Shown here: piece by piece, positions 36,967 through 45,765 of the stretch
Layout of the letters: each line of letters starts with the position of its first letter
Position numbering within the stretch: position 1 is the first letter of the stretch
Assembly: GCA_965209115.1 (NCBI GenBank)
Contig: CBDBQD010000001.1
Location: 1,122,071 to 1,186,070, forward strand
Reading direction: 5' to 3'
Origin: Acidimicrobiales bacterium
GTDB taxonomy: Bacteria > Actinomycetota > Acidimicrobiia > Acidimicrobiales > CATQHL01
DNA length: 64,000 nucleotides
Program-made: the position numbers and the translations under genes
The notes under the pieces: generated by a model
The model's input: only the letters and a program-made list of their open reading frames with translations
Told to the model about the DNA's origin: nothing
Database searches by the model: none

Positions 36967-37722
36967 TCAGTCCGACCAGCCGTACCATCCGCTCTGCCAG
37001 GTCTTGCCGGGCGGGTTGCTTGCGGCGTCGTGGTGGAAGCATCCCCAATGCCCCGCCGCGAAGCAGGCGTCTTTCGTGCCGTAGGGACCGCCGTTCGCGT
37101 CGCTCGGCAGGTTCGTCTCCGGCAGTGTGGGTTCGGGATCGGGGTCCCAGCTGGCCTGCTCTGCGACCAAGTCCGCGGTGGTGGGGTATAGCTGCTCGCC
37201 GGTGCTGGTCCAGCTGAGGCTCTCGCCGGCGCCGTCGGGCCACAGGTCGCCGGGCTGGGTGGTCGTCGTCGGCGGGACGTAGGCGCCCAGGGTGGCCTCC
37301 CAGTGCACTGTGCCGGCGGTGATCCTGATCGTGTCGTACCCGCCACTGCGGAGTTCTCCCTGGTTGACCCACACCTCCCACGCCGATCCGAACCAGTACA
37401 TCATCACCGAACTGTCACAGAACCGCCAACGGCGGCCGGCGCTGCAGCTGACTGCGGTGTGGCTTCCGGCGGTCGATGCGCGCACCGAGATCGTGTCGCT
37501 GTCGCTCGTTCCGCTGACCGTCAGCTCGCAGTAGCCCCGGCCCGTGAGCTGGTTCGGGCTGCCGCCGGTCGGGCATGGGGTTCCGTACTTGTCCAGCCCG
37601 CTGAACGTCACCGTCTGGGCGTGGGCCGGGGCGACGAGTATCGCAGCCAGTGGAACCGCCGCCAGTGCGACCGCGGCCAGTGCCGCCACGAACGCCCGTC
37701 TCCTGTGCCTCCCCCGATTCAT
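36967..37722 (-). CDS. Secreted protein of unknown function with a Tat-like signal peptide
   Basis: MNRGRHRRRAFVAALAAVALAAVPLAAILVAPAHA-QT. Cys- and Trp-rich mature part (251 aa in total). No family recognised. Confidence 0.6.
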   Translation of the reverse strand: MNRGRHRRRAFVAALAAVALAAVPLAAILVAPAHAQTVTFSGLDKYGTPCPTGGSPNQLTGRGYCELTVSGTSDSDTISVRASTAGSHTAVSCSAGRRWRFCDSSVMMYWFGSAWEVWVNQGELRSGGYDTIRITAGTVHWEATLGAYVPPTTTTQPGDLWPDGAGESLSWTSTGEQLYPTTADLVAEQASWDPDPEPTLPETNLPSDANGGPYGTKDACFAAGHWGCFHHDAASNPPGKTWQSGWYGWSD

Positions 37723-38221
37723 GTCGAAACCCCTCCCGTGGTGCTGCTCCAGACCTGTTGAGTTCCGCAGGCACGTCCCCGTCGCCGATGCGAGAGGCCG
37801 CATCCGTAACTCGCACCACCATATGCCCGATCGCGGGCGGTAAAGGGGGTCAACCAATTCGCTGCGCCTGCGCCGTCTCGCCGAGCTGCTATGCCCGATC
37901 GCGGGGTGTCGACCCTCGTCTCGGAGCCGATCGGGCGCGTCCTCCACAGGTGCCGCTAGGTCCGGCGACGCGCACGGCGCCTGTCCCCTTCGGTCCTCGT
38001 CGGCGAGGGCGTCGTGGCGCTCGGCGGGGCGGGTGGCCGCCGACTCGTACGCCTCGGCGGTGTTGCGGTACGTGCCGAGCCACTTGTCGAGGGGGACAGT
38101 GAGCTTGCCGTCGTTGCCCTCGAAGTAGCGGAGGTGCAGCCAGTGGAAGTCGTCGCCCACCGGCAGTCTCCCCGTGACGGTCTTGCCCGGGAAGCCGGTG
38201 TGGCCGTGTGCGGACGCCAGG

Positions 38222-40036: not shown

Positions 40037-40804
40037 ATGAGCGAGCGACGACTCGAGGGCCGGCGCTGCCTGGTGACCGGAGCCGCCGGTGGGCAGGGCG
40101 CCGCCGTGAGCCGCAGGTTCGCGGCCGAGGGGGCCTCGGTGGCTGTGACCGACCTCCACGATGACGGCGTGCAGGAGCTCGCCGCCGAACTGCGCGACGG
40201 CGGCGCCACCGCGGTCGGCGTCGCCGCAGACGCGCGCGACGAGGCGCAGGTGGCCGGCGTCGTGGAGGTCGCCGTTGGATCTCTCGGCGGGTTGGACGTG
40301 CTGTACAACAACGCCGGCGTCCTGTTGCTCGACGACGACCGCCCGAGCGAGGACCTGGAACTCGACACCTGGAACAAGGTGCTGGCCATCAACGCCACCG
40401 GGATGTTCCTGTTCTGCAAGCACGCCCTGCGCCCGTTGCTCGACGCGGCCCCCGGGTCGGTGATCCTGAACGTCGGCTCGGCTGCCTCGTACCGCGGTGA
40501 TCCCCACTTCCACGCCTACGCCGCCGCCAAAGGGGCACTGCTGTCCTACACGGCGTCGCTGGCGCAGTGTTACGGGCCGCGCGGGTTGCGTGCCAACCTG
40601 ATCTGTCCCGGATTCATCGAGACGCCCATGATCGAGTCTCTGCTCACCGACGAGGACCTCGTGGCAGCGGTCACCGGCGCCACGGCGCTACGGCGCATGG
40701 GCCGGCCGGAGGAGATCGCCGCCTACGCCGCCTTCCTGGCCTCCGACGACGCCTCGTTCGTAACCGACGCCGTTGTCACGGTGCACGGCGGATTCGTCAA
40801 GTAG
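40037..40804 (+). CDS. SDR family oxidoreductase
   Basis: GAGGAGG upstream of the ATG. VTGAAGGQGAA, and catalytic YAAAKGAL. Confidence 0.85.
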   Translation: MSERRLEGRRCLVTGAAGGQGAAVSRRFAAEGASVAVTDLHDDGVQELAAELRDGGATAVGVAADARDEAQVAGVVEVAVGSLGGLDVLYNNAGVLLLDDDRPSEDLELDTWNKVLAINATGMFLFCKHALRPLLDAAPGSVILNVGSAASYRGDPHFHAYAAAKGALLSYTASLAQCYGPRGLRANLICPGFIETPMIESLLTDEDLVAAVTGATALRRMGRPEEIAAYAAFLASDDASFVTDAVVTVHGGFVK

Positions 40805-41354
40805 GAGGGTACGGAAGCGGCGCGACGGGGAGCACGCCGGGCATGTCGACGAAGCCGGGCAGGCGTTGGACACGCTCGGCCCACCGCCGGAGGGCGGGAT
40901 AGTCCTCGTGTGAGATCCCTCCCTCCCCGGAGAGGGCGACGTCGGGGCAGACGGCGATGTCGGCGACCGTGGCGATGCACGGCCCGCAGGCGCCTTGCTC
41001 GCAGGACGACGGCAGGTCGACTCCGGCGTTCCGCAGGCCGTCGAGCAGCGACATGCCGCCGGCGATCAGCACCGTCCTGGCCGCGTCCCGCCGGAGGGGG
41101 AAGTTGTTGCAGGGCTCGGAGAGGTCCAGGAGGTCGCCGACCTTGACGCTGTCATGCATGTACCGCGATCCGCCGCCGGCCGAGCAGGCGGCTCCGGACC
41201 ACGTGGCGCGGCACCAGTCGGCACCGGCGGCGACATCCCTGTCGAGCAGCTTGGTCCGCATGGTCTCGCCTGCGCGGAGATCGTCGAGGATCGCCACGGG
41301 ATGCCAGAGATCCAGGATCGCCGGACCGGGCTCCTGCGGAGCCGATGCATTCAT
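40797..41354 (-). pseudogene. Mosaic ORF joining fragments of a Rieske oxygenase, a PDR/VanB-type reductase (FAD/NAD part and 2Fe-2S part) and a GST C-terminal domain
   Basis: LWHPVAILDDLRAGETMRTKLL (Rieske N-terminus); GGGSRYMHDSVKVGDLLDLSEPCNNFPLRRDAARTVLIAGG (reductase); LLDGLRNAGVDLPSSCEQGACGPCIATV (ferredoxin C-x4-C-x2-C); ADIAVCP...DYPALRRWAERVQRLPGF (GST-C). Every domain core is missing. Confidence 0.5.
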
Positions 41355-41364
41355 GTCGTCCGTC

Positions 41365-43125
41365 CTACCAGCCGCTGATCCAGCCCTCCAAGAGGCCGCG
41401 AGGCTCGGTTTCCTCCTCGCCGGGGCGGTGCCGCAGCACGTCGAAATCGGCTCCGGCGTCGGCCTGCAGCACATGGTCCAGGTAGATGCTGCCGTAGCCA
41501 CGGCGATAGGGGCGATCGGGGAGCGGGCGCTGCGCGAGGCGCCGGCTGATCTCCTGCGGTGCCACGCACAGGTCGAGCCGCCGGGCGCCCACGTCGAGGA
41601 GGATCTCATCGCCGTCGTTCACGGCTCCCAGCGGTCCCCCGACGGCGCTCTCGGGGGCGGTGTGCAGCACGACGGTTCCGTAGCCCGTACCGCTCATGCG
41701 TGCGTCTGAGATGCGCACCATGTCGGCTACCCCCTGCGCCAGCAGCTTGCGAGGGATGGGCAGCATCCCCCACTCGGGCATGCCGGGCGCCCCCTTCGGA
41801 CCGGCGCCACGCAGCACGAGCACGGTGTCGGCCACCACCGGCAGGTCGGGATCGTCGATGCGGTCCAGGAGATCGTCGATGCCCTCGAACACCAGAGCCG
41901 GCCCCCGATGCCGGAGCAGGCCTTCGGTGGCGGCGCTCACCTTGATGACCGCGCCGTCAGGGGCGAGCGAGCCGCGCAGCACCGCCAGCCCACCTGCCGG
42001 CTGCAGCGGCGCGTCCAGTGGGCGGAGCACGTCCCGATCCCAGACCTCGGCGCTCGCGATGTTCTCCCCCATGGTCCGACCCGTCACTGTGCGAGCGTCG
42101 AGGTGAAGCAGGGGCGCCAACTCGCCGAGCAGCGCGGTGACGCCACCCGCCCGCTGCAGGTCCTCGAACAGGTACTCGCCCGCCGGCTGGATGTTGGTGA
42201 GCACGGGGGTGCGGGCGGCGATCCGGTCGAACCGGTCCAGCGGCAGATCCACGCCGAGGCGTCCCGCCAGGGCGATGAGGTGCAGCACGGCGTTCGTGGA
42301 TCCCGCGACCGCCGCCAGAGCCGTCACGGCGTTCTCGAGAGCCTCGAGTGTGAGGATGTCGGCGGGTCGCAGTCCCTCCTTCGCGATCTCGACGGCACGG
42401 CGCCCGGTCTCCTCGGCGAGAGCACCCCGGCGGGCATCGGTGGCGGGGACGGCCGCTGAGCCGGGGAGAGACATGCCGAGCGCCTCGGTGAGGGTGGCCA
42501 TGGTGGAGGCGGTGCCCATCTCGCTGCAGTGGCCGACGCCGGGGCGCGTGGCGGCCTCCAACTCGGCGTACTCGCCGGCTGACATGCGCCCCGCCCGCAG
42601 GTCGTCGGTGTAGCGCCAGATGTCGGTGCCGGCCCCGATGCGCCGCCCCCGGAAGTTGCCCGGCTGCATGGGGCCGCCGGTCAGTGCGATGGCAGGTACG
42701 CCGGCGCTGGCGGCGCCCATGAGTTGCGCCGGGACGGTCTTGTCGCAGCCTCCCACCAGCACCACCGCGTCGAGCGGGCTGGAGCGGATCATCTCCTCGA
42801 TGTCCATCGACATGAGGTTGCGATACAGCATCGTGGTGGGCTTCGTCAGCATCTCGCTGAGCGAGATCGTGGGGAACTCCAGTGCCAGCCCGCCCGCGGC
42901 CTGCACGCCGCGCTTGACCGCCGCCACGAGCGTGTCGAAATGGAGGTTGCAGTTCACCAACTCGGAGTGCGAGTTGGCGATACCGATCACCGGTCGGCCC
43001 GAGACGGCGACGTCCGAGAGTCCTTCTGATCGGAGCGCCGTGCGGTGCAGGAAGCCGAAGAGATCCTTCGGCGCGAACCATCGGCTGCTGCGCAGCATCA
43101 CCGGCGCTTCCCGGCTGGCGGTCAT
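41365..43125 (-). CDS. IlvD/Edd family dehydratase (dihydroxy-acid or sugar-acid dehydratase)
   Basis: VLVGGCDKTVPAQLMGA and the N-terminal LRSSRWF... pattern. 586 aa. Confidence 0.9.
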   Translation of the reverse strand: MTASREAPVMLRSSRWFAPKDLFGFLHRTALRSEGLSDVAVSGRPVIGIANSHSELVNCNLHFDTLVAAVKRGVQAAGGLALEFPTISLSEMLTKPTTMLYRNLMSMDIEEMIRSSPLDAVVLVGGCDKTVPAQLMGAASAGVPAIALTGGPMQPGNFRGRRIGAGTDIWRYTDDLRAGRMSAGEYAELEAATRPGVGHCSEMGTASTMATLTEALGMSLPGSAAVPATDARRGALAEETGRRAVEIAKEGLRPADILTLEALENAVTALAAVAGSTNAVLHLIALAGRLGVDLPLDRFDRIAARTPVLTNIQPAGEYLFEDLQRAGGVTALLGELAPLLHLDARTVTGRTMGENIASAEVWDRDVLRPLDAPLQPAGGLAVLRGSLAPDGAVIKVSAATEGLLRHRGPALVFEGIDDLLDRIDDPDLPVVADTVLVLRGAGPKGAPGMPEWGMLPIPRKLLAQGVADMVRISDARMSGTGYGTVVLHTAPESAVGGPLGAVNDGDEILLDVGARRLDLCVAPQEISRRLAQRPLPDRPYRRGYGSIYLDHVLQADAGADFDVLRHRPGEEETEPRGLLEGWISGW

Positions 43126-43203
43126 CGGACGCTCACGCTAGAACATTCGGGTCACGGGGGATCGCTGTCCGTCTCTCCGGGATCGGCGGAGGAGGTTCGG
43201 AGC

Positions 43204-43983
43204 GTGTCGGAGGACCCGATCGGCAGGCTTGCCGGCAAGATCAGCATCGTCACCGGTGCCGGGCGCGGCATCGGTCACGCCATCGCCACGCGGTTCGGCG
43301 CCGAGGGGGCGATCGTGGTGGCCGCCAATCGCAACGAGCGCGAGGGTGAGGCCGTCGTGGCCGAGATCGCCGCCGCCGGGGGCGAAGCCGTGTTCGTGCG
43401 CACCGACATCCGTTGCCTCGAGGACTGCGAGCGGCTGGTGGCGGAGACCGAAGCCCGTTTCGGACGCATCGACGTGCTCTGCAACAACGCGGGGGTGGGG
43501 ATCCTGCGGTCGGTCGAGGACACGTCGCTCGACGAGTACGACTACATCATGGACACGAACGTGCGGGGGGCCTTCTGGCTGACCAAGCACGCCGTCGGGG
43601 GCATGGCTGGGCGGGGGTCGGGCTCGATCATCAATCTGGCCTCGGTGGCCAGCTTCGTGGGCTTCGAGAACGACGCCGCCTACTGCGCCTCGAAGGGCGC
43701 GCTCCTGATGCTCACGCGCCAGGTGGCGCTGGAGTACGCGGCGGCTGGGGTGCGCGTGAACGCCATCTGCCCCGGCTTCATCGAGACGCCGGAGATGCAC
43801 CACTACTGCGAGCAGCAGCCCGACCCGGAGGCGGCCCTCGCCGCCTGCCACGCCGCCCATCCCATGGGCAGGGTCGGCCAACCCCACGAGGTCGCCGCTG
43901 CCGCCGTGTTCCTGGCCGCCGACGAGTCCTCCTTCGTGACCGGCGCCTCGCTCGTGGTCGACGGCGGTCTGCTGATCCGCTAG
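43204..43983 (+). CDS. SDR family oxidoreductase
   Basis: GTG start with GGAGGAGG upstream. VTGAGRGIGHA, and YCASKGAL. Confidence 0.85.
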   Translation: MSEDPIGRLAGKISIVTGAGRGIGHAIATRFGAEGAIVVAANRNEREGEAVVAEIAAAGGEAVFVRTDIRCLEDCERLVAETEARFGRIDVLCNNAGVGILRSVEDTSLDEYDYIMDTNVRGAFWLTKHAVGGMAGRGSGSIINLASVASFVGFENDAAYCASKGALLMLTRQVALEYAAAGVRVNAICPGFIETPEMHHYCEQQPDPEAALAACHAAHPMGRVGQPHEVAAAAVFLAADESSFVTGASLVVDGGLLIR

Positions 43984-44187
43984 GCACCCTCGATCGCCCG
44001 AGTCCGGCGGCCCTGATCTGTCGGCCTGCCTCTCGAACGGGTCGCTCAGCGGCGGGCGGTGCGGTCGACGCGACCTGCTGCAGGAGCAGGTCCAGCAGCC
44101 AAGGTCCGCTCCCCTTGAGGGGACTACAGTGAGCGCACCCATCGAGGTCGATCACCGATCTCGGCCGTCTGTTCTCGAGGGGGGAAC

Positions 44188-45765
44188 ATGAGACGAAAAC
44201 TGTCCCTGCTAGTCGCGTTGCTTGCCGTATTCGGTCTAGTGGCGGCCGCCTGTGGAGCCGATGACGACGATTCCGCAGCAGCGCCGCCACCGCCGCCGGC
44301 AGCAGAACCGGAGGCGCCGCCTCCGCCGCCCGCAGACGAACCACCGCCGCCTCCACCGGCTGACGAGCCGCCTCCGCCGCCTCCACCCGCGGACGACATG
44401 GACGAGGACATGGGCGAGGACACGCCCGCCACGCGGGCCATCGCCGGCATCAAGGCGCTGAACCTGCCGCCGGACACCACGATCACGGTGTTCACCGAGG
44501 ACCTGTCGATCCTGGGACCGGAGGTCACCAAGGACGCCTTCGAGGCCCAGTCCGGCATCAAGCTGGACATCCAGAAGGCGCCGTTCGGGGAGTACGCGTC
44601 CAAGATCCTCGCCGACGCAGCCACCCAGGCCGGCACGTTCGATGTCGTCCTCGTCGAGACGAACCGGCTCGGCGACCTGGACAACGCCGGCTACCTGGTC
44701 GACGTGACCGAATGGGTGGAGAAGTACGACCCGGACATCGAGGACTTCATCTTCCCGATCAGCCACACCGCCTCGCAGTACAACGGGCGCTACGTGGGTC
44801 TGCCCACCGACGGCGACGTGTTCATCTTCTACTACCGCAAGGACCTGCTGGAGGATCCCGCCGAGCAGGCGGCCTTCCAGGAGCAGTACGGCCGTGAGCT
44901 GACCGTGCCGGTGAGTTACGACGAGTACATGGAGGTGCTGGAGTTCTTCACCCGTCCCGAGGACAACCTGTACGGCGCCGCCGAGTGGCGCATCACCGCC
45001 GTCAACTACTGGTGGTTCTGGCAGCGACTCTGGTCAGGTGGAGGCACCTACTTCAACGACGACATGTCGGCCACCGTCAACAGCCCGGCAGGCGTGCAGG
45101 CGCTCGAGGACATGATCGCCATGGAAGCCGTCATGTCGCCCGACGCCCTCAGCTACGGCTACGTGGAGACGGTGGAGGCCATGACCAGCGGCACTGCCTT
45201 CTCCAACATCACCTGGCCGGCGGCGGGCAAGAACGCCAACGACCCGGAGACCTCCTCCACCGTCGGCGCCTGGGGCTACGCCACCGTGCCCGGTTATGTC
45301 GTGAATGGAGAGGTCAACCAGAGGTCCATGTCGGCGCCCGGCTACACGATCCTCGTGTCGAACTACGCCGACGTCAACAAGGAGGCCGCCTACCTCTACA
45401 CGCAGTGGTTCACCAGCCCGGAGAACCTCATCCAGGCCAACCAGAACCTGGGTGGCAACACGGACGTGGTGCGCGCCTCCATCTTCGCCGACCCGTCGAT
45501 GGCAGAACTCTTCCCGGGCGCGGATGAGTACCTGGACGCCCAGAAGGCGAATCTGGCCCAGGCCGTTCCCGACCCGGTGCTGCCCGGCTACGGCGAGTAC
45601 GCCCAGGCGCTCGAGATCGAGCTCTCCAACGCCCTCACCGGCCAGAAGTCGCCCCAGGAGGCCCTGGACGACGCCGCCGAGGCGTGGGACGAGATCACCG
45701 ACAGCTACGGGCGCGAGGAGCAACTGCAGGTCTGGCAGAACTTCCTGGCTTCGATCGCCGGCTAG
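44188..45765 (+). CDS. Sugar-type ABC substrate-binding lipoprotein (family 1)
   Basis: Lipobox LVAAAC followed by a Pro-rich acidic tether (PPPPPADEPPPPPPADEPPPPPPPADD), then an SBP body. It heads the permease genes. Confidence 0.85.
   Translation: MRRKLSLLVALLAVFGLVAAACGADDDDSAAAPPPPPAAEPEAPPPPPADEPPPPPPADEPPPPPPPADDMDEDMGEDTPATRAIAGIKALNLPPDTTITVFTEDLSILGPEVTKDAFEAQSGIKLDIQKAPFGEYASKILADAATQAGTFDVVLVETNRLGDLDNAGYLVDVTEWVEKYDPDIEDFIFPISHTASQYNGRYVGLPTDGDVFIFYYRKDLLEDPAEQAAFQEQYGRELTVPVSYDEYMEVLEFFTRPEDNLYGAAEWRITAVNYWWFWQRLWSGGGTYFNDDMSATVNSPAGVQALEDMIAMEAVMSPDALSYGYVETVEAMTSGTAFSNITWPAAGKNANDPETSSTVGAWGYATVPGYVVNGEVNQRSMSAPGYTILVSNYADVNKEAAYLYTQWFTSPENLIQANQNLGGNTDVVRASIFADPSMAELFPGADEYLDAQKANLAQAVPDPVLPGYGEYAQALEIELSNALTGQKSPQEALDDAAEAWDEITDSYGREEQLQVWQNFLASIAG

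Follow-up and report, generated by a model that had tools for sequence, protein, structure and literature searches.

The description of the three-part N7-demethylase NdmCDE is reportedly owed to Summers et al. in 2013. According to a review (PMC4408171), this enzyme of Pseudomonas putida CBB5 comprises the Rieske-less oxygenase NdmC, the Rieske-bearing reductase NdmD and the GST-like protein NdmE. The open reading frame (ORF) considered here derives from a cluster with the same components in the same gene order: an oxygenase with a VanA_C domain only, a reductase combining Rieske, FNR and plant-type Fer2 domains, and an adjacent GST-like gene. Judged by this three-part domain architecture and the gene order, the parent cluster is of the NdmCDE type. 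In contrast to the described system, the host is an Acidimicrobiia-type MAG, and the window (the whole 64-kb stretch of DNA that was analysed) holds fragments only, so that the system cannot work there. A comparison can also be drawn with PDR/VanB-type reductases (PDB 2pia, 7ylr), to which two pieces of the ORF (pieces 3 and 4 below) align, one over a stretch of the FAD/NAD module and the other over the part of the 2Fe-2S domain with the C-x4-C-x2-C motif. Unlike these enzymes, the ORF keeps only 42 + 34 residues; about 127 residues between them are gone, and neither the remainder of the FMN/NAD fold nor the fourth cysteine is present.

The closest parallels to the loss itself come from bacterial symbionts. 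In the leaf-nodule symbionts Ca. Burkholderia, both the intervals between microhomologies and the deletions in pseudogenes were described as biased towards 3n (PMC6054270), and for the symbiont Ca. Sodalis pierantonius slippage at G+C-rich repeats was described as deletogenic (PMC4948707). The locus shares with this pseudogene erosion the short G+C-rich direct or quasi-repeats flanking the deletions and an excess of 3n outcomes, for which the 3n periodicity of microhomologies accounts. The window organism is probably host-associated as well, and the gene sits in a module that relatives also lose. The published 3n bias, however, stems mainly from small deletions, whereas the window shows four large ones (380-940 nt) within one 3.3-kb operon, by which three genes were condensed to one start-to-stop ORF that passes gene callers.

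The ORF is located on the minus strand. It spans 40797-41354 with 185 codons plus stop, in agreement with the initial annotation, which had also correctly placed its ATG 10 nt past the stop codon of an IlvD/Edd gene. The ORF and its two neighbours are as follows.

41365..43125, minus strand: IlvD/Edd-family dehydratase gene, intact upstream neighbour; 95.7% amino acid identity to the copy in the closest relative, L012.
40797..41354, minus strand: chimeric ORF, 185 codons plus stop, with native ATG and native 10-nt spacer after the IlvD stop; both ends colinear with the intact cluster of L012.
40037..40804, plus strand: short-chain dehydrogenase (SDR) gene, 255 aa, intact convergent downstream neighbour; 94% amino acid identity to the L012 copy.

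The GC content of the window is 69.7%. In its NCBI record (MDE0194208.1) the ORF is named '2Fe-2S iron-sulfur cluster-binding protein', i.e. a ferredoxin annotation. Over 40300-41900, an Rfam search at E-values up to 1 gave no match and scans for promoters and terminators found none; within the 64-kb window no second copy of the oxygenase/reductase/GST cluster was found. An antisense gene was considered and rejected, as stop-poor high-GC DNA typically contains long ORFs like those on the plus strand at 40957-41709 and 40995-41378.

In L012, an intact three-gene cluster of 3.3 kb lies between the same IlvD and SDR genes at the exact position of the ORF, the gene order being SDR259, IlvD, oxygenase, reductase, GST, SDR255. 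The IlvD proteins of L012 and the window are 95.7% identical and the SDRs 94-95%, and both flanks of the ORF are contiguous into L012. L012 directly demonstrates the first alternative of the initial annotation, in which several deletions reduced an oxygenase/reductase/GST cluster to this residue. The genes of the intact cluster overlap or sit 6-10 nt apart; the co-oriented GST gene starts 6-10 nt past the reductase stop in L004, L011, L012, L015, L017 and the proteobacterial loci, and the three-gene module is conserved in the same order in many Proteobacteria. The L004 oxygenase (300 aa) contains only VanA_C (aa 110-284), with no Rieske match and no CxH/CxxH in its N-terminus, and the L004 reductase (587 aa) contains Rieske (aa 12-91), NAD_binding_1 (382-472) and Fer2 (509-578) domains. 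The solved structures nearest to the parent oxygenase are SxtT/SxtDIOX and NdmB/NdmA, and the PDB matches include NdmA, NdmB and an NdmD fragment. Split Rieske oxygenase modules of this ndmCDE-like kind occur widely among these MAGs and marine Proteobacteria, and they are repeatedly being lost.

The parentage of every piece of the ORF was established by blastn of the window segment 41500-40600 (reverse complement) against the intact loci L004, L011, L012, L015, L017 and L018. Against all six, the alignments resolve the ORF into the same five collinear pieces from three adjacent genes, with ends overlapping at each junction.

41228..41354, minus strand: piece 1, codons 1-42; N-terminus of the Rieske-less VanA_C (NdmC-like) oxygenase gene, native frame; blastn L004 10001-10127, 88%, and L012 5419-5550, 89%.
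41174..41234, minus strand: piece 2, codons 41-60; codons 13-32 of the Rieske+FNR+Fer2 reductase (NdmD-like) gene; blastn L004 10926-10985, 88%, and L012 6354-6415, 90%.
41053..41178, minus strand: piece 3, codons 60-101; FAD/NAD (FNR)-module stretch of the reductase, aa 346-387, native frame; blastn L004 11922-12049, 88%, and PDB alignments 2pia, 7ylr and 6kbh.
40965..41067, minus strand: piece 4, codons 97-130; plant-type Fer2 segment of the same reductase, aa 514-548, with the C-x4-C-x2-C motif present and the fourth Cys ligand absent; Pfam Fer2 positions 10-52 of 77 and blastn L004 12431-12533, 90%.
40797..40972, minus strand: piece 5, codons 128-185 plus stop; C-terminus of the GST-like (NdmE-like) gene, parent residues 161-214; blastn L012 8559-8938, 92.6%, contiguous into the SDR gene, and tblastn.

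Piece 5 still ends in the native LPYPPT* and, as in the intact state, overlaps the convergent SDR gene by 8 nt. At the protein level, the N-terminus of the ORF is 80-89% identical to VanA_C oxygenases of 300 aa and the C-terminus up to 89-92% identical to GSTs of 214 aa; about 14%, 16% and 25% of the three parent proteins remain in the window. Pieces 1 and 3 are nearer to L004 and pieces 4 and 5 to L012, which makes a simple tree-based branch test unsafe. The pieces other than Fer2 are too short for profiles and were assigned via near-identical full-length relatives and the DNA alignment.

The four family assignments of the initial annotation all hold, given the Fer2 match in Pfam, the alignments to PDR-type structures and the protein matches to VanA_C oxygenases and GSTs. 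Its count of four pieces has to be raised to five, since pieces 1 and 3 are separated by a 20-codon piece from the reductase N-terminus. FNR and Fer2, counted separately among the four families, both come from one gene, leaving three source genes in all. A Rieske-oxygenase N-terminus had been proposed for the first piece; its oxygenase origin stands, but the parent subunit is itself without a Rieske cluster. Nor are the families unrelated, as together they make up a system of a known kind, the NdmCDE type.

None of the domains is complete, as had been noted from the start. In a Pfam search with the whole ORF, Fer2 (PF00111) alone was matched, significantly, with an E-value of 5.5e-8 and a score of 33.1 bits (cut-off 21); the match runs over aa 95-135 and covers positions 10-52 of the 77-position profile. 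There was no match to FAD_binding, NAD_binding, Rieske, VanA_C or GST. The NCBIfam matches of the whole ORF were to reductases and ferredoxins, all of them sub-threshold, and the PDR-type reductases 2pia, 7ylr and 6kbh align to aa 59-104. The segment of the plant-type Fer2 domain with the fourth Cys, beyond aa 548 of the parent reductase, was deleted, and this ligand is missing in six of seven alleles; position 136 is Cys in the window allele only and Phe in the others. An FNR-like reductase has a flavin-binding and a complete NAD-binding Rossmann domain, of which parent residues 346-387 are kept. Of a Rieske oxygenase alpha-subunit, with its Rieske CxH...CxxH and VanA_C iron-binding triad, the first 42 parent residues remain, and of a GST, with an N-terminal thioredoxin-like GSH-binding and a complete C-terminal helical domain, parent residues 161-214; the ORF qualifies as none of the three. 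The AlphaFold model had a mean pLDDT of 38 and a pTM of 0.32 with no confident fold, a weak test given an input alignment of seven near-identical sequences.

The junction sequences can be read directly from the overlapping alignments, as can a small lesion within piece 2.

41228..41234, minus strand: junction 1, microhomology GTCGCCG (7 nt); alignments overlap at q267-273; about 805 nt lost; in phase.
41216..41217, minus strand: 1-nt deletion, a one-base gap against all ten compared relatives that retain the stretch, in every alignment of piece 2.
41174..41178, minus strand: junction 2, microhomology CGGCG (5 nt, within a CGG repeat); 941-nt deletion; out of phase, offset by the 1-nt deletion.
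41053..41067, minus strand: junction 3, microhomology CGGCAT (6 nt perfect; 13/15 extended); overlap at q434-448; about 380 nt lost; in phase.
40965..40972, minus strand: junction 4, microhomology ACGGTC (6 nt, L012) or CCACGGTC (8 nt, L004); overlap at q529-536; about 600 nt lost; in phase.

At least three deletions had been postulated; there are four large ones (about 805, 941, 380 and 600 nt) plus the 1-nt deletion. Compared with L012, 3,320 nt were reduced to 558 nt, a total loss of about 2.76 kb. The statement that all junctions stay in frame is correct insofar as a single open frame results, but junction 2 is out of phase and is compensated by the 1-nt deletion, downstream of which codons 47-59 ('WCRATWSGAACSA'; window 41179-41216) are out of their native frame.

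Similar in-phase deletions recur elsewhere. In the reductase gene of L013, deletions of 372 and 360 nt arose independently of each other, both in frame and with 8-9 nt of microhomology, and in L043 an oxygenase-GST fusion was joined in phase via a 2,560-nt deletion with 9 nt of microhomology, its start codon being lost. Across lineages, 7 of 8 large deletions in this cluster are in phase (junctions 1, 3 and 4 of the window, the two of L013, that of L043 and that of P0107, the last called from protein sequence alone). These recurrent examples came from protein searches, which favour in-frame remnants.

In all likelihood, an ndmCDE-like operon decayed into this ORF, a young pseudogene relic. The ORF originates from genes that are intact at the same position in L012, and it carries the four deletions and the frameshifting 1-nt deletion as lesions. 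The ancestor would have been an NdmCDE-type three-gene operon between the IlvD dehydratase gene and the convergent SDR gene, encoding a non-haem-iron oxygenase that lacks a Rieske domain, a reductase whose FNR and plant-type Fer2 modules are preceded by an additional Rieske domain at the N-terminus, and a GST-like protein. Four deletions between short G+C-rich direct repeats (5-7 nt perfect, up to 13/15 imperfect), probably through replication slippage or microhomology-mediated end joining, then removed about 2.76 kb, either in succession or as one complex event. Three of the junctions join codons in the same phase and the fourth (941 nt) does not; a 1-nt deletion 40 nt upstream of the 941-nt junction, which it offsets, was fixed as well. 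Because most such repeats keep the phase and most frames contain few stop codons at 70% GC, a frame running from the native start to the GST stop is unremarkable. Since the native start and spacer were kept, the ORF may be transcribed and translated with IlvD. The product, if made, would be without any complete domain, and we infer that such a peptide has no function.

The open frame had been regarded as a feature expected only a few percent of the time and as a possible sign of a selected chimeric mini-protein. The absence of a stop codon is not unusual, as 45 of the 81 junction-phase combinations leave an ORF of at least 180 aa, and in the 69.7% GC window 18-28% of all 185-codon stretches in any frame contain no stop. 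A naive model puts native phase at every junction at 1.2%. Short repeats in codon-periodic DNA are, however, mostly in phase: in six intact clusters, of the identical k-mers separated by 300-1100 nt, the fraction in phase was 0.53 (k=6), 0.56 (k=7), 0.60 (k=8) and 0.62 (k=9), which raises the expectation to about 5-7%. With this microhomology phase bias counted, the null is several-fold higher than the few percent had suggested, and one junction is in any case out of phase; the in-frame state is too unremarkable for selection to be implied. The same numbers bear on the idea that the ORF is a pseudogene with a functionless final product, and yet decayed stepwise under selection for in-phase deletions, which avoid premature termination and polarity or decoupling effects on a still-useful reductase or GST. 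The overlapping or closely spaced genes of the intact cluster suggest translational coupling, and the 7 of 8 in-phase deletions across lineages agree with it. The measured bias of 0.55-0.62, however, already gives P of about 0.1-0.2 for such counts, and the protein matches by which the cases were found favour in-frame ones. The last deletion, moreover, took the GST N-terminus with nothing left to protect downstream on the strand, the next gene being convergent. We consider selected decay of this kind very unlikely.

The alleles of the ORF bear on the remaining explanations. The window and most of its relatives are metagenome assemblies, and a collapsed or chimeric contig, or another artefact of assembly or binning, comes to mind. 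The same junctions were nevertheless found in eight independently assembled contigs (NCBI, ENA, JGI and Logan; at least seven samples) that are 99.4-99.7% identical in nucleotides, differ by 0.3-0.6% point substitutions and are colinear up to 16.9 kb, and an artefact can practically be dismissed. A conserved family of small VanA-N/FNR/Fer2/GST-C proteins, named beforehand as one of the findings that would overturn the initial interpretation, has no support other than these near-identical alleles. In a search of 5.8 billion proteins, the full-length homologues were 7 sequences, all at least 98% identical, and the other matches covered at most 56% of the query and all came from the three parent families; such a family is hardly conceivable. 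A contig scan of species representatives returned none with the chimera itself. A new 185-aa product, for example a minimal Fe-S/redox peptide translated with IlvD and held under purifying selection, with the 1-nt deletion as a selected repair, could draw on the open frame, native ATG and native spacer in all six full-length alleles, on the exact offset of junction 2, which selection for an open frame would produce, on the retained C-x4-C-x2-C motif and on the Cys gained at position 136 in the window allele. Against it stand the lack of any complete domain and, in most alleles, of the fourth cluster ligand, as well as the low pLDDT. The ORF has 17.9 segregating sites per kb compared with 5.7-6.8 in the IlvD, SDR255 and AMP-ligase genes, a roughly 3-fold diversity near the synonymous-site level of the neighbour genes (10 sites observed versus 3.5 expected, P=0.003; nonsynonymous sites 6 versus 1.6, P=0.006), which points to relaxed constraint among the alleles. 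Residues invariant in six intact relatives were replaced in the window only, namely R82C (PRNNF), T125P (CGTC cluster loop), L135V and F136C; T125P is polymorphic among alleles, and H18Q also hits an otherwise invariant residue. The pN/pS of 0.53 did not differ significantly from the flanks on small counts (Fisher P=0.48), nor did the N:S ratios from flanks or intact relatives (P about 0.47), and the private substitutions against the six intact relatives (6 nonsynonymous to 2 synonymous) lie in the expected direction, not significantly. At an allele divergence of at most 0.6%, neutral stops or frameshifts are not yet expected, so that the alleles discriminate only weakly. The absence of homologues of this architecture beyond 98% identity, the expectation of an open in-phase state at about 5-7% or more without selection and the in-phase junction of the independent L043 relic, which has no start codon, argue likewise against a selected mini-protein, which is very improbable.

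It is similarly very doubtful that the relic is still translated by coupling to IlvD and that either the peptide gained a function, for example as a metal- or redox-active micro-protein with three or four cysteines, or in-phase deletion was actively favoured. If true, this would be gene birth by exon-shuffling-like deletion in a bacterial operon, caught in the act, and the locus would gain interest only if the peptide turned out to be produced and to serve the cell. As a young pseudogene relic, the ORF is a fully reconstructed example in which every breakpoint of a four-deletion, three-gene operon collapse is readable at base resolution against an intact relative. It illustrates why in-frame relics are common in high-GC, codon-periodic genomes: stops are infrequent there, and most microhomologies keep the phase. 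Gene callers and the NCBI pipeline accept the relic, and such relics can inflate protein catalogues and metabolic reconstructions of sponge-type Acidimicrobiia.

The chimeric ORF lies on the minus strand between a dehydratase gene and a convergent short-chain dehydrogenase gene, within a window of 69.7% G+C:

40797-41354, minus strand: chimeric ORF, 185 codons plus stop
41365-43125, minus strand: intact IlvD/Edd-family dehydratase gene (IlvD), Pfam ILVD_EDD_N and ILV_EDD_C
40037-40804, plus strand: short-chain dehydrogenase gene (SDR255), convergent to the chimeric ORF

Its ATG follows the IlvD stop by 10 nt, and its final 8 nt overlap the 3' end of SDR255. The single significant Pfam match was Fer2 at aa 95-135, covering profile positions 10-52 of 77. 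In PDB sequence searches, aa 59-104 resembled the flavin/NAD module of phthalate dioxygenase reductase-type proteins (2pia, 7ylr, 6kbh, 6laa), aa 94-135 aligned with plant-type ferredoxins and aa 129-171 aligned weakly with glutathione S-transferases (GSTs). As the initial annotation had stated, the ORF contains no complete domain; the fourth Fe-S ligand is gone. AlphaFold, run on the allele alignment, returned a mean pLDDT of 38 and a pTM of 0.32, scores that are consistent with the absence of a fold in the predicted product, although the test is weak. A scan of 40300-41900 revealed no Rfam families and no promoter-like or terminator-like sites. An antisense gene was also considered and rejected, the long antisense ORFs at this position being typical for the base composition of the window.

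A search of 5.8 billion proteins returned full-length proteins in three distinct sets, each with high identity to its own part of the ORF. Roughly the first quarter shared 80-89% identity with proteins of 297-303 aa carrying a VanA_C domain only, the middle matched PDR/VanB-type reductases and the last 29% shared up to 89% identity with GSTs of 214 aa. Full-length matches to the ORF itself were confined to one cluster of seven proteins with at least 98% identity, including the window's own; beyond it, no family with this architecture was present among the proteins searched. Together with blastn against relatives, the Pfam, PDB and protein searches bear out the four families named initially, with corrections.

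In relatives, the three parent genes adjoin. They encode a 300-aa oxygenase that carries VanA_C alone and no Rieske domain, a reductase of 587 aa (Rieske aa 12-91, NAD_binding 382-472, Fer2 509-578) and a GST-like protein of 215 aa. The intact module was located at L004:10001-13307 and L012:5419-8738, and also at loci L011, L015, L017, L018 and L019-L035. Its gene order is conserved in sponge-type Acidimicrobiia MAGs and recurs, with 45-56% identity, across many Alpha- and Gammaproteobacteria that are marine or rhizobial (L019-L035); the 64-kb window holds no second copy. NdmCDE of Pseudomonas putida CBB5 (PMC4408171) likewise combines an oxygenase that lacks a Rieske domain, a reductase that bears an additional one at its N-terminus and a GST-like protein. 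The parent trio shares this three-part architecture and, judged by it, is probably an NdmCDE-like split Rieske oxygenase. The closest solved structures to the parent oxygenase were SxtT/SxtDIOX and NdmB/NdmA. Given this architecture, the families joined in the ORF are not unrelated, as had been proposed, but parts of one known type of system.

The state before the deletions is preserved in L012, a locus of the sponge-type MAG COS4_bin_33 with the gene order of the window: SDR259 (a short-chain dehydrogenase gene, reverse), IlvD, oxygenase, reductase, GST and SDR255 (reverse). The encoded proteins are 95.7% (IlvD) and 94-95% (both dehydrogenases) identical to those of the window. Contiguity extends at one end from the last part of IlvD across the 10-nt spacer to the oxygenase start, and at the other from the GST tail ('LPYPPT*') to the overlapping dehydrogenase gene. 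The window thus corresponds to a locus of the L012 type after 3,320 nt had shrunk to 558 nt, and the synteny agrees with the earlier view of the ORF as the residue of an oxygenase/reductase/GST cluster. Start codon, spacer, stop and 8-nt overlap are native and not novel features of the relic.

Comparison of the region with six intact loci by blastn resolved five collinear pieces from three genes, where four pieces had been counted; the stitched structure was otherwise confirmed, with junctions now at base resolution.

Pieces of the chimeric ORF and direct repeats at its junctions
Piece 1: codons 1-42, from oxygenase aa 1-42
Piece 2: codons 41-60, from reductase aa 13-32
Piece 3: codons 60-101, from reductase aa 346-387
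Piece 4: codons 97-130, from reductase aa 514-548
Piece 5: codons 128-185, from GST aa 161 to the end
Junction 1: GTCGCCG, 7 nt
Junction 2: CGGCG, 5 nt, in a CGG run
Junction 3: CGGCAT, 6 nt perfect, 13/15 when extended
Junction 4: ACGGTC, 6 nt, 8 nt in L004

The lesions comprise four large deletions, each with a short direct repeat at its junction, and a 1-nt deletion inside piece 2 (41216/41217), present against every compared relative that retains this stretch. The latter places codons 47-59 ('WCRATWSGAACSA') out of their native frame. Junction 2, a 941-nt deletion, is itself out of phase, so that the two lesions cancel.

The initial annotation put the chance of stop-free, in-frame junctions at a few percent. 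Openness itself is common: when the junction phases were shifted in all 81 ways, an ORF of at least 180 aa persisted in 45, and 18-28% of 185-codon stretches in all frames of the window are stop-free. The ORF is therefore no more open than expected by chance. Native phase at all junctions has a joint probability of about 5-7% if 1/3 is granted to junction 2 plus the 1-nt deletion. Under a naive model the figure would be (1/3)^4 = 1.2%, a null that does not suit deletions mediated by repeats in codon-periodic DNA; pairs of identical k-mers separated by 300-1100 nt in six intact clusters fell in the same codon phase at rates of 53% (k=6), 56% (k=7), 60% (k=8) and 62% (k=9). Since the ORF was singled out post hoc for looking striking, the case against chance is weaker still. 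Published work describes the same 3n bias both for the spacing of microhomologies and for deletions in bacterial pseudogenes (PMC6054270), and deletogenic slippage at G+C-rich repeats is on record for a young symbiont (PMC4948707).

In independent assemblies (NCBI, ENA, JGI, Logan), eight alleles diverged from the window by 0.3-0.6% and showed no indels in the region. All junctions were common to the eight, which rules out an assembly artefact. The ORF carried 17.9 segregating sites per kb, against 5.7 in IlvD, 6.5 in SDR255 and 6.8 in the AMP-ligase gene (10 sites observed, 3.5 expected, P=0.003; nonsynonymous 6 and 1.6, P=0.006), and its overall diversity approximated that of synonymous sites in the neighbouring genes. 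Nine positions varied among seven protein alleles, with H18Q and, in the C-G-T-C cluster loop, T/P125 among the variants. Relative to six intact relatives, the window lineage had six nonsynonymous and two synonymous private changes, among them replacements of invariant residues (R82C in PRNNF, T125P, L135V, F136C). The N:S contrasts were not significant (P ~0.47), and the lack of new stops among the alleles is uninformative at such shallow divergence. A selected mini-protein, the alternative raised initially, is unlikely. The ORF is very probably a recent pseudogene relic of an ndmCDE-like operon, which four microhomology-mediated deletions and the 1-nt deletion would have produced and whose frame mutational phase bias and stop-poor composition would have kept open.

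A 397-aa ORF without a Pfam family (36967-38160, minus strand), flanked by the AMP-ligase gene and a Uma2-family gene, showed the highest polymorphism of any gene in the neighbourhood. It had 19.3 segregating sites per kb, with 19 nonsynonymous and four synonymous variants in five alleles, and is either fast-evolving or no real gene.

The parent cluster decays independently elsewhere, again mostly in phase, in a sample that was found via protein matches and is thus skewed to in-frame remnants. Two deletions of 372 and 360 nt, both in frame (microhomology 8 and 9 nt), have shortened the reductase at L013:8483-9514 to 343 aa. At L043:4736-5368, a locus of the common gene order, oxygenase codons ~41-206 are fused in phase to GST codon 169 onward across a deletion of 2,560 nt whose junction shows microhomology of 9 nt; the start codon of this 140-aa ORF (P0054) was deleted. 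In another protein, P0107, the Rieske domain is joined directly to Fer2 and the FNR module is missing. Reductase genes are frameshifted at L003:457-2224 and L005:6759-9176, the latter locus also with a degraded GST; in the long-read assemblies all these lesions could be sequencing errors.

The usual gene order in relatives (L003, L005, L011, L015, L017) is cluster, SDR259 (reverse), SDR255 (reverse), IlvD and AMP-ligase, whereas in the window (40037-45765) and L012 the cluster stands between IlvD and SDR255, with the AMP-ligase gene last. At L004:9735-10004, right upstream of the oxygenase gene, a remnant of IlvD persists (aa 1-80 and the final eight codons), and L012 has an additional GST C-terminal relic upstream of SDR259. 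These orders and leftover relics suggest that the block was duplicated or rearranged long ago. Downstream of the GST gene in L004 (13437-16258), SDR259 is interrupted by an insertion that carries a PIN-domain toxin with a small partner ORF and a SWIM/DUF6880 protein, with dehydrogenase 3' relics on either side.

Transcription and translation of the relic together with IlvD may persist, with no sign of function. Gene calling picked it up in every assembly, and NCBI lists it as '2Fe-2S iron-sulfur cluster-binding protein' (MDE0194208.1 in GCA_028819945.1), an annotation pitfall that exemplifies how a pseudogene relic gets into protein databases. Rather than a new kind of element, it is a neat and fully reconstructed case of a known process.
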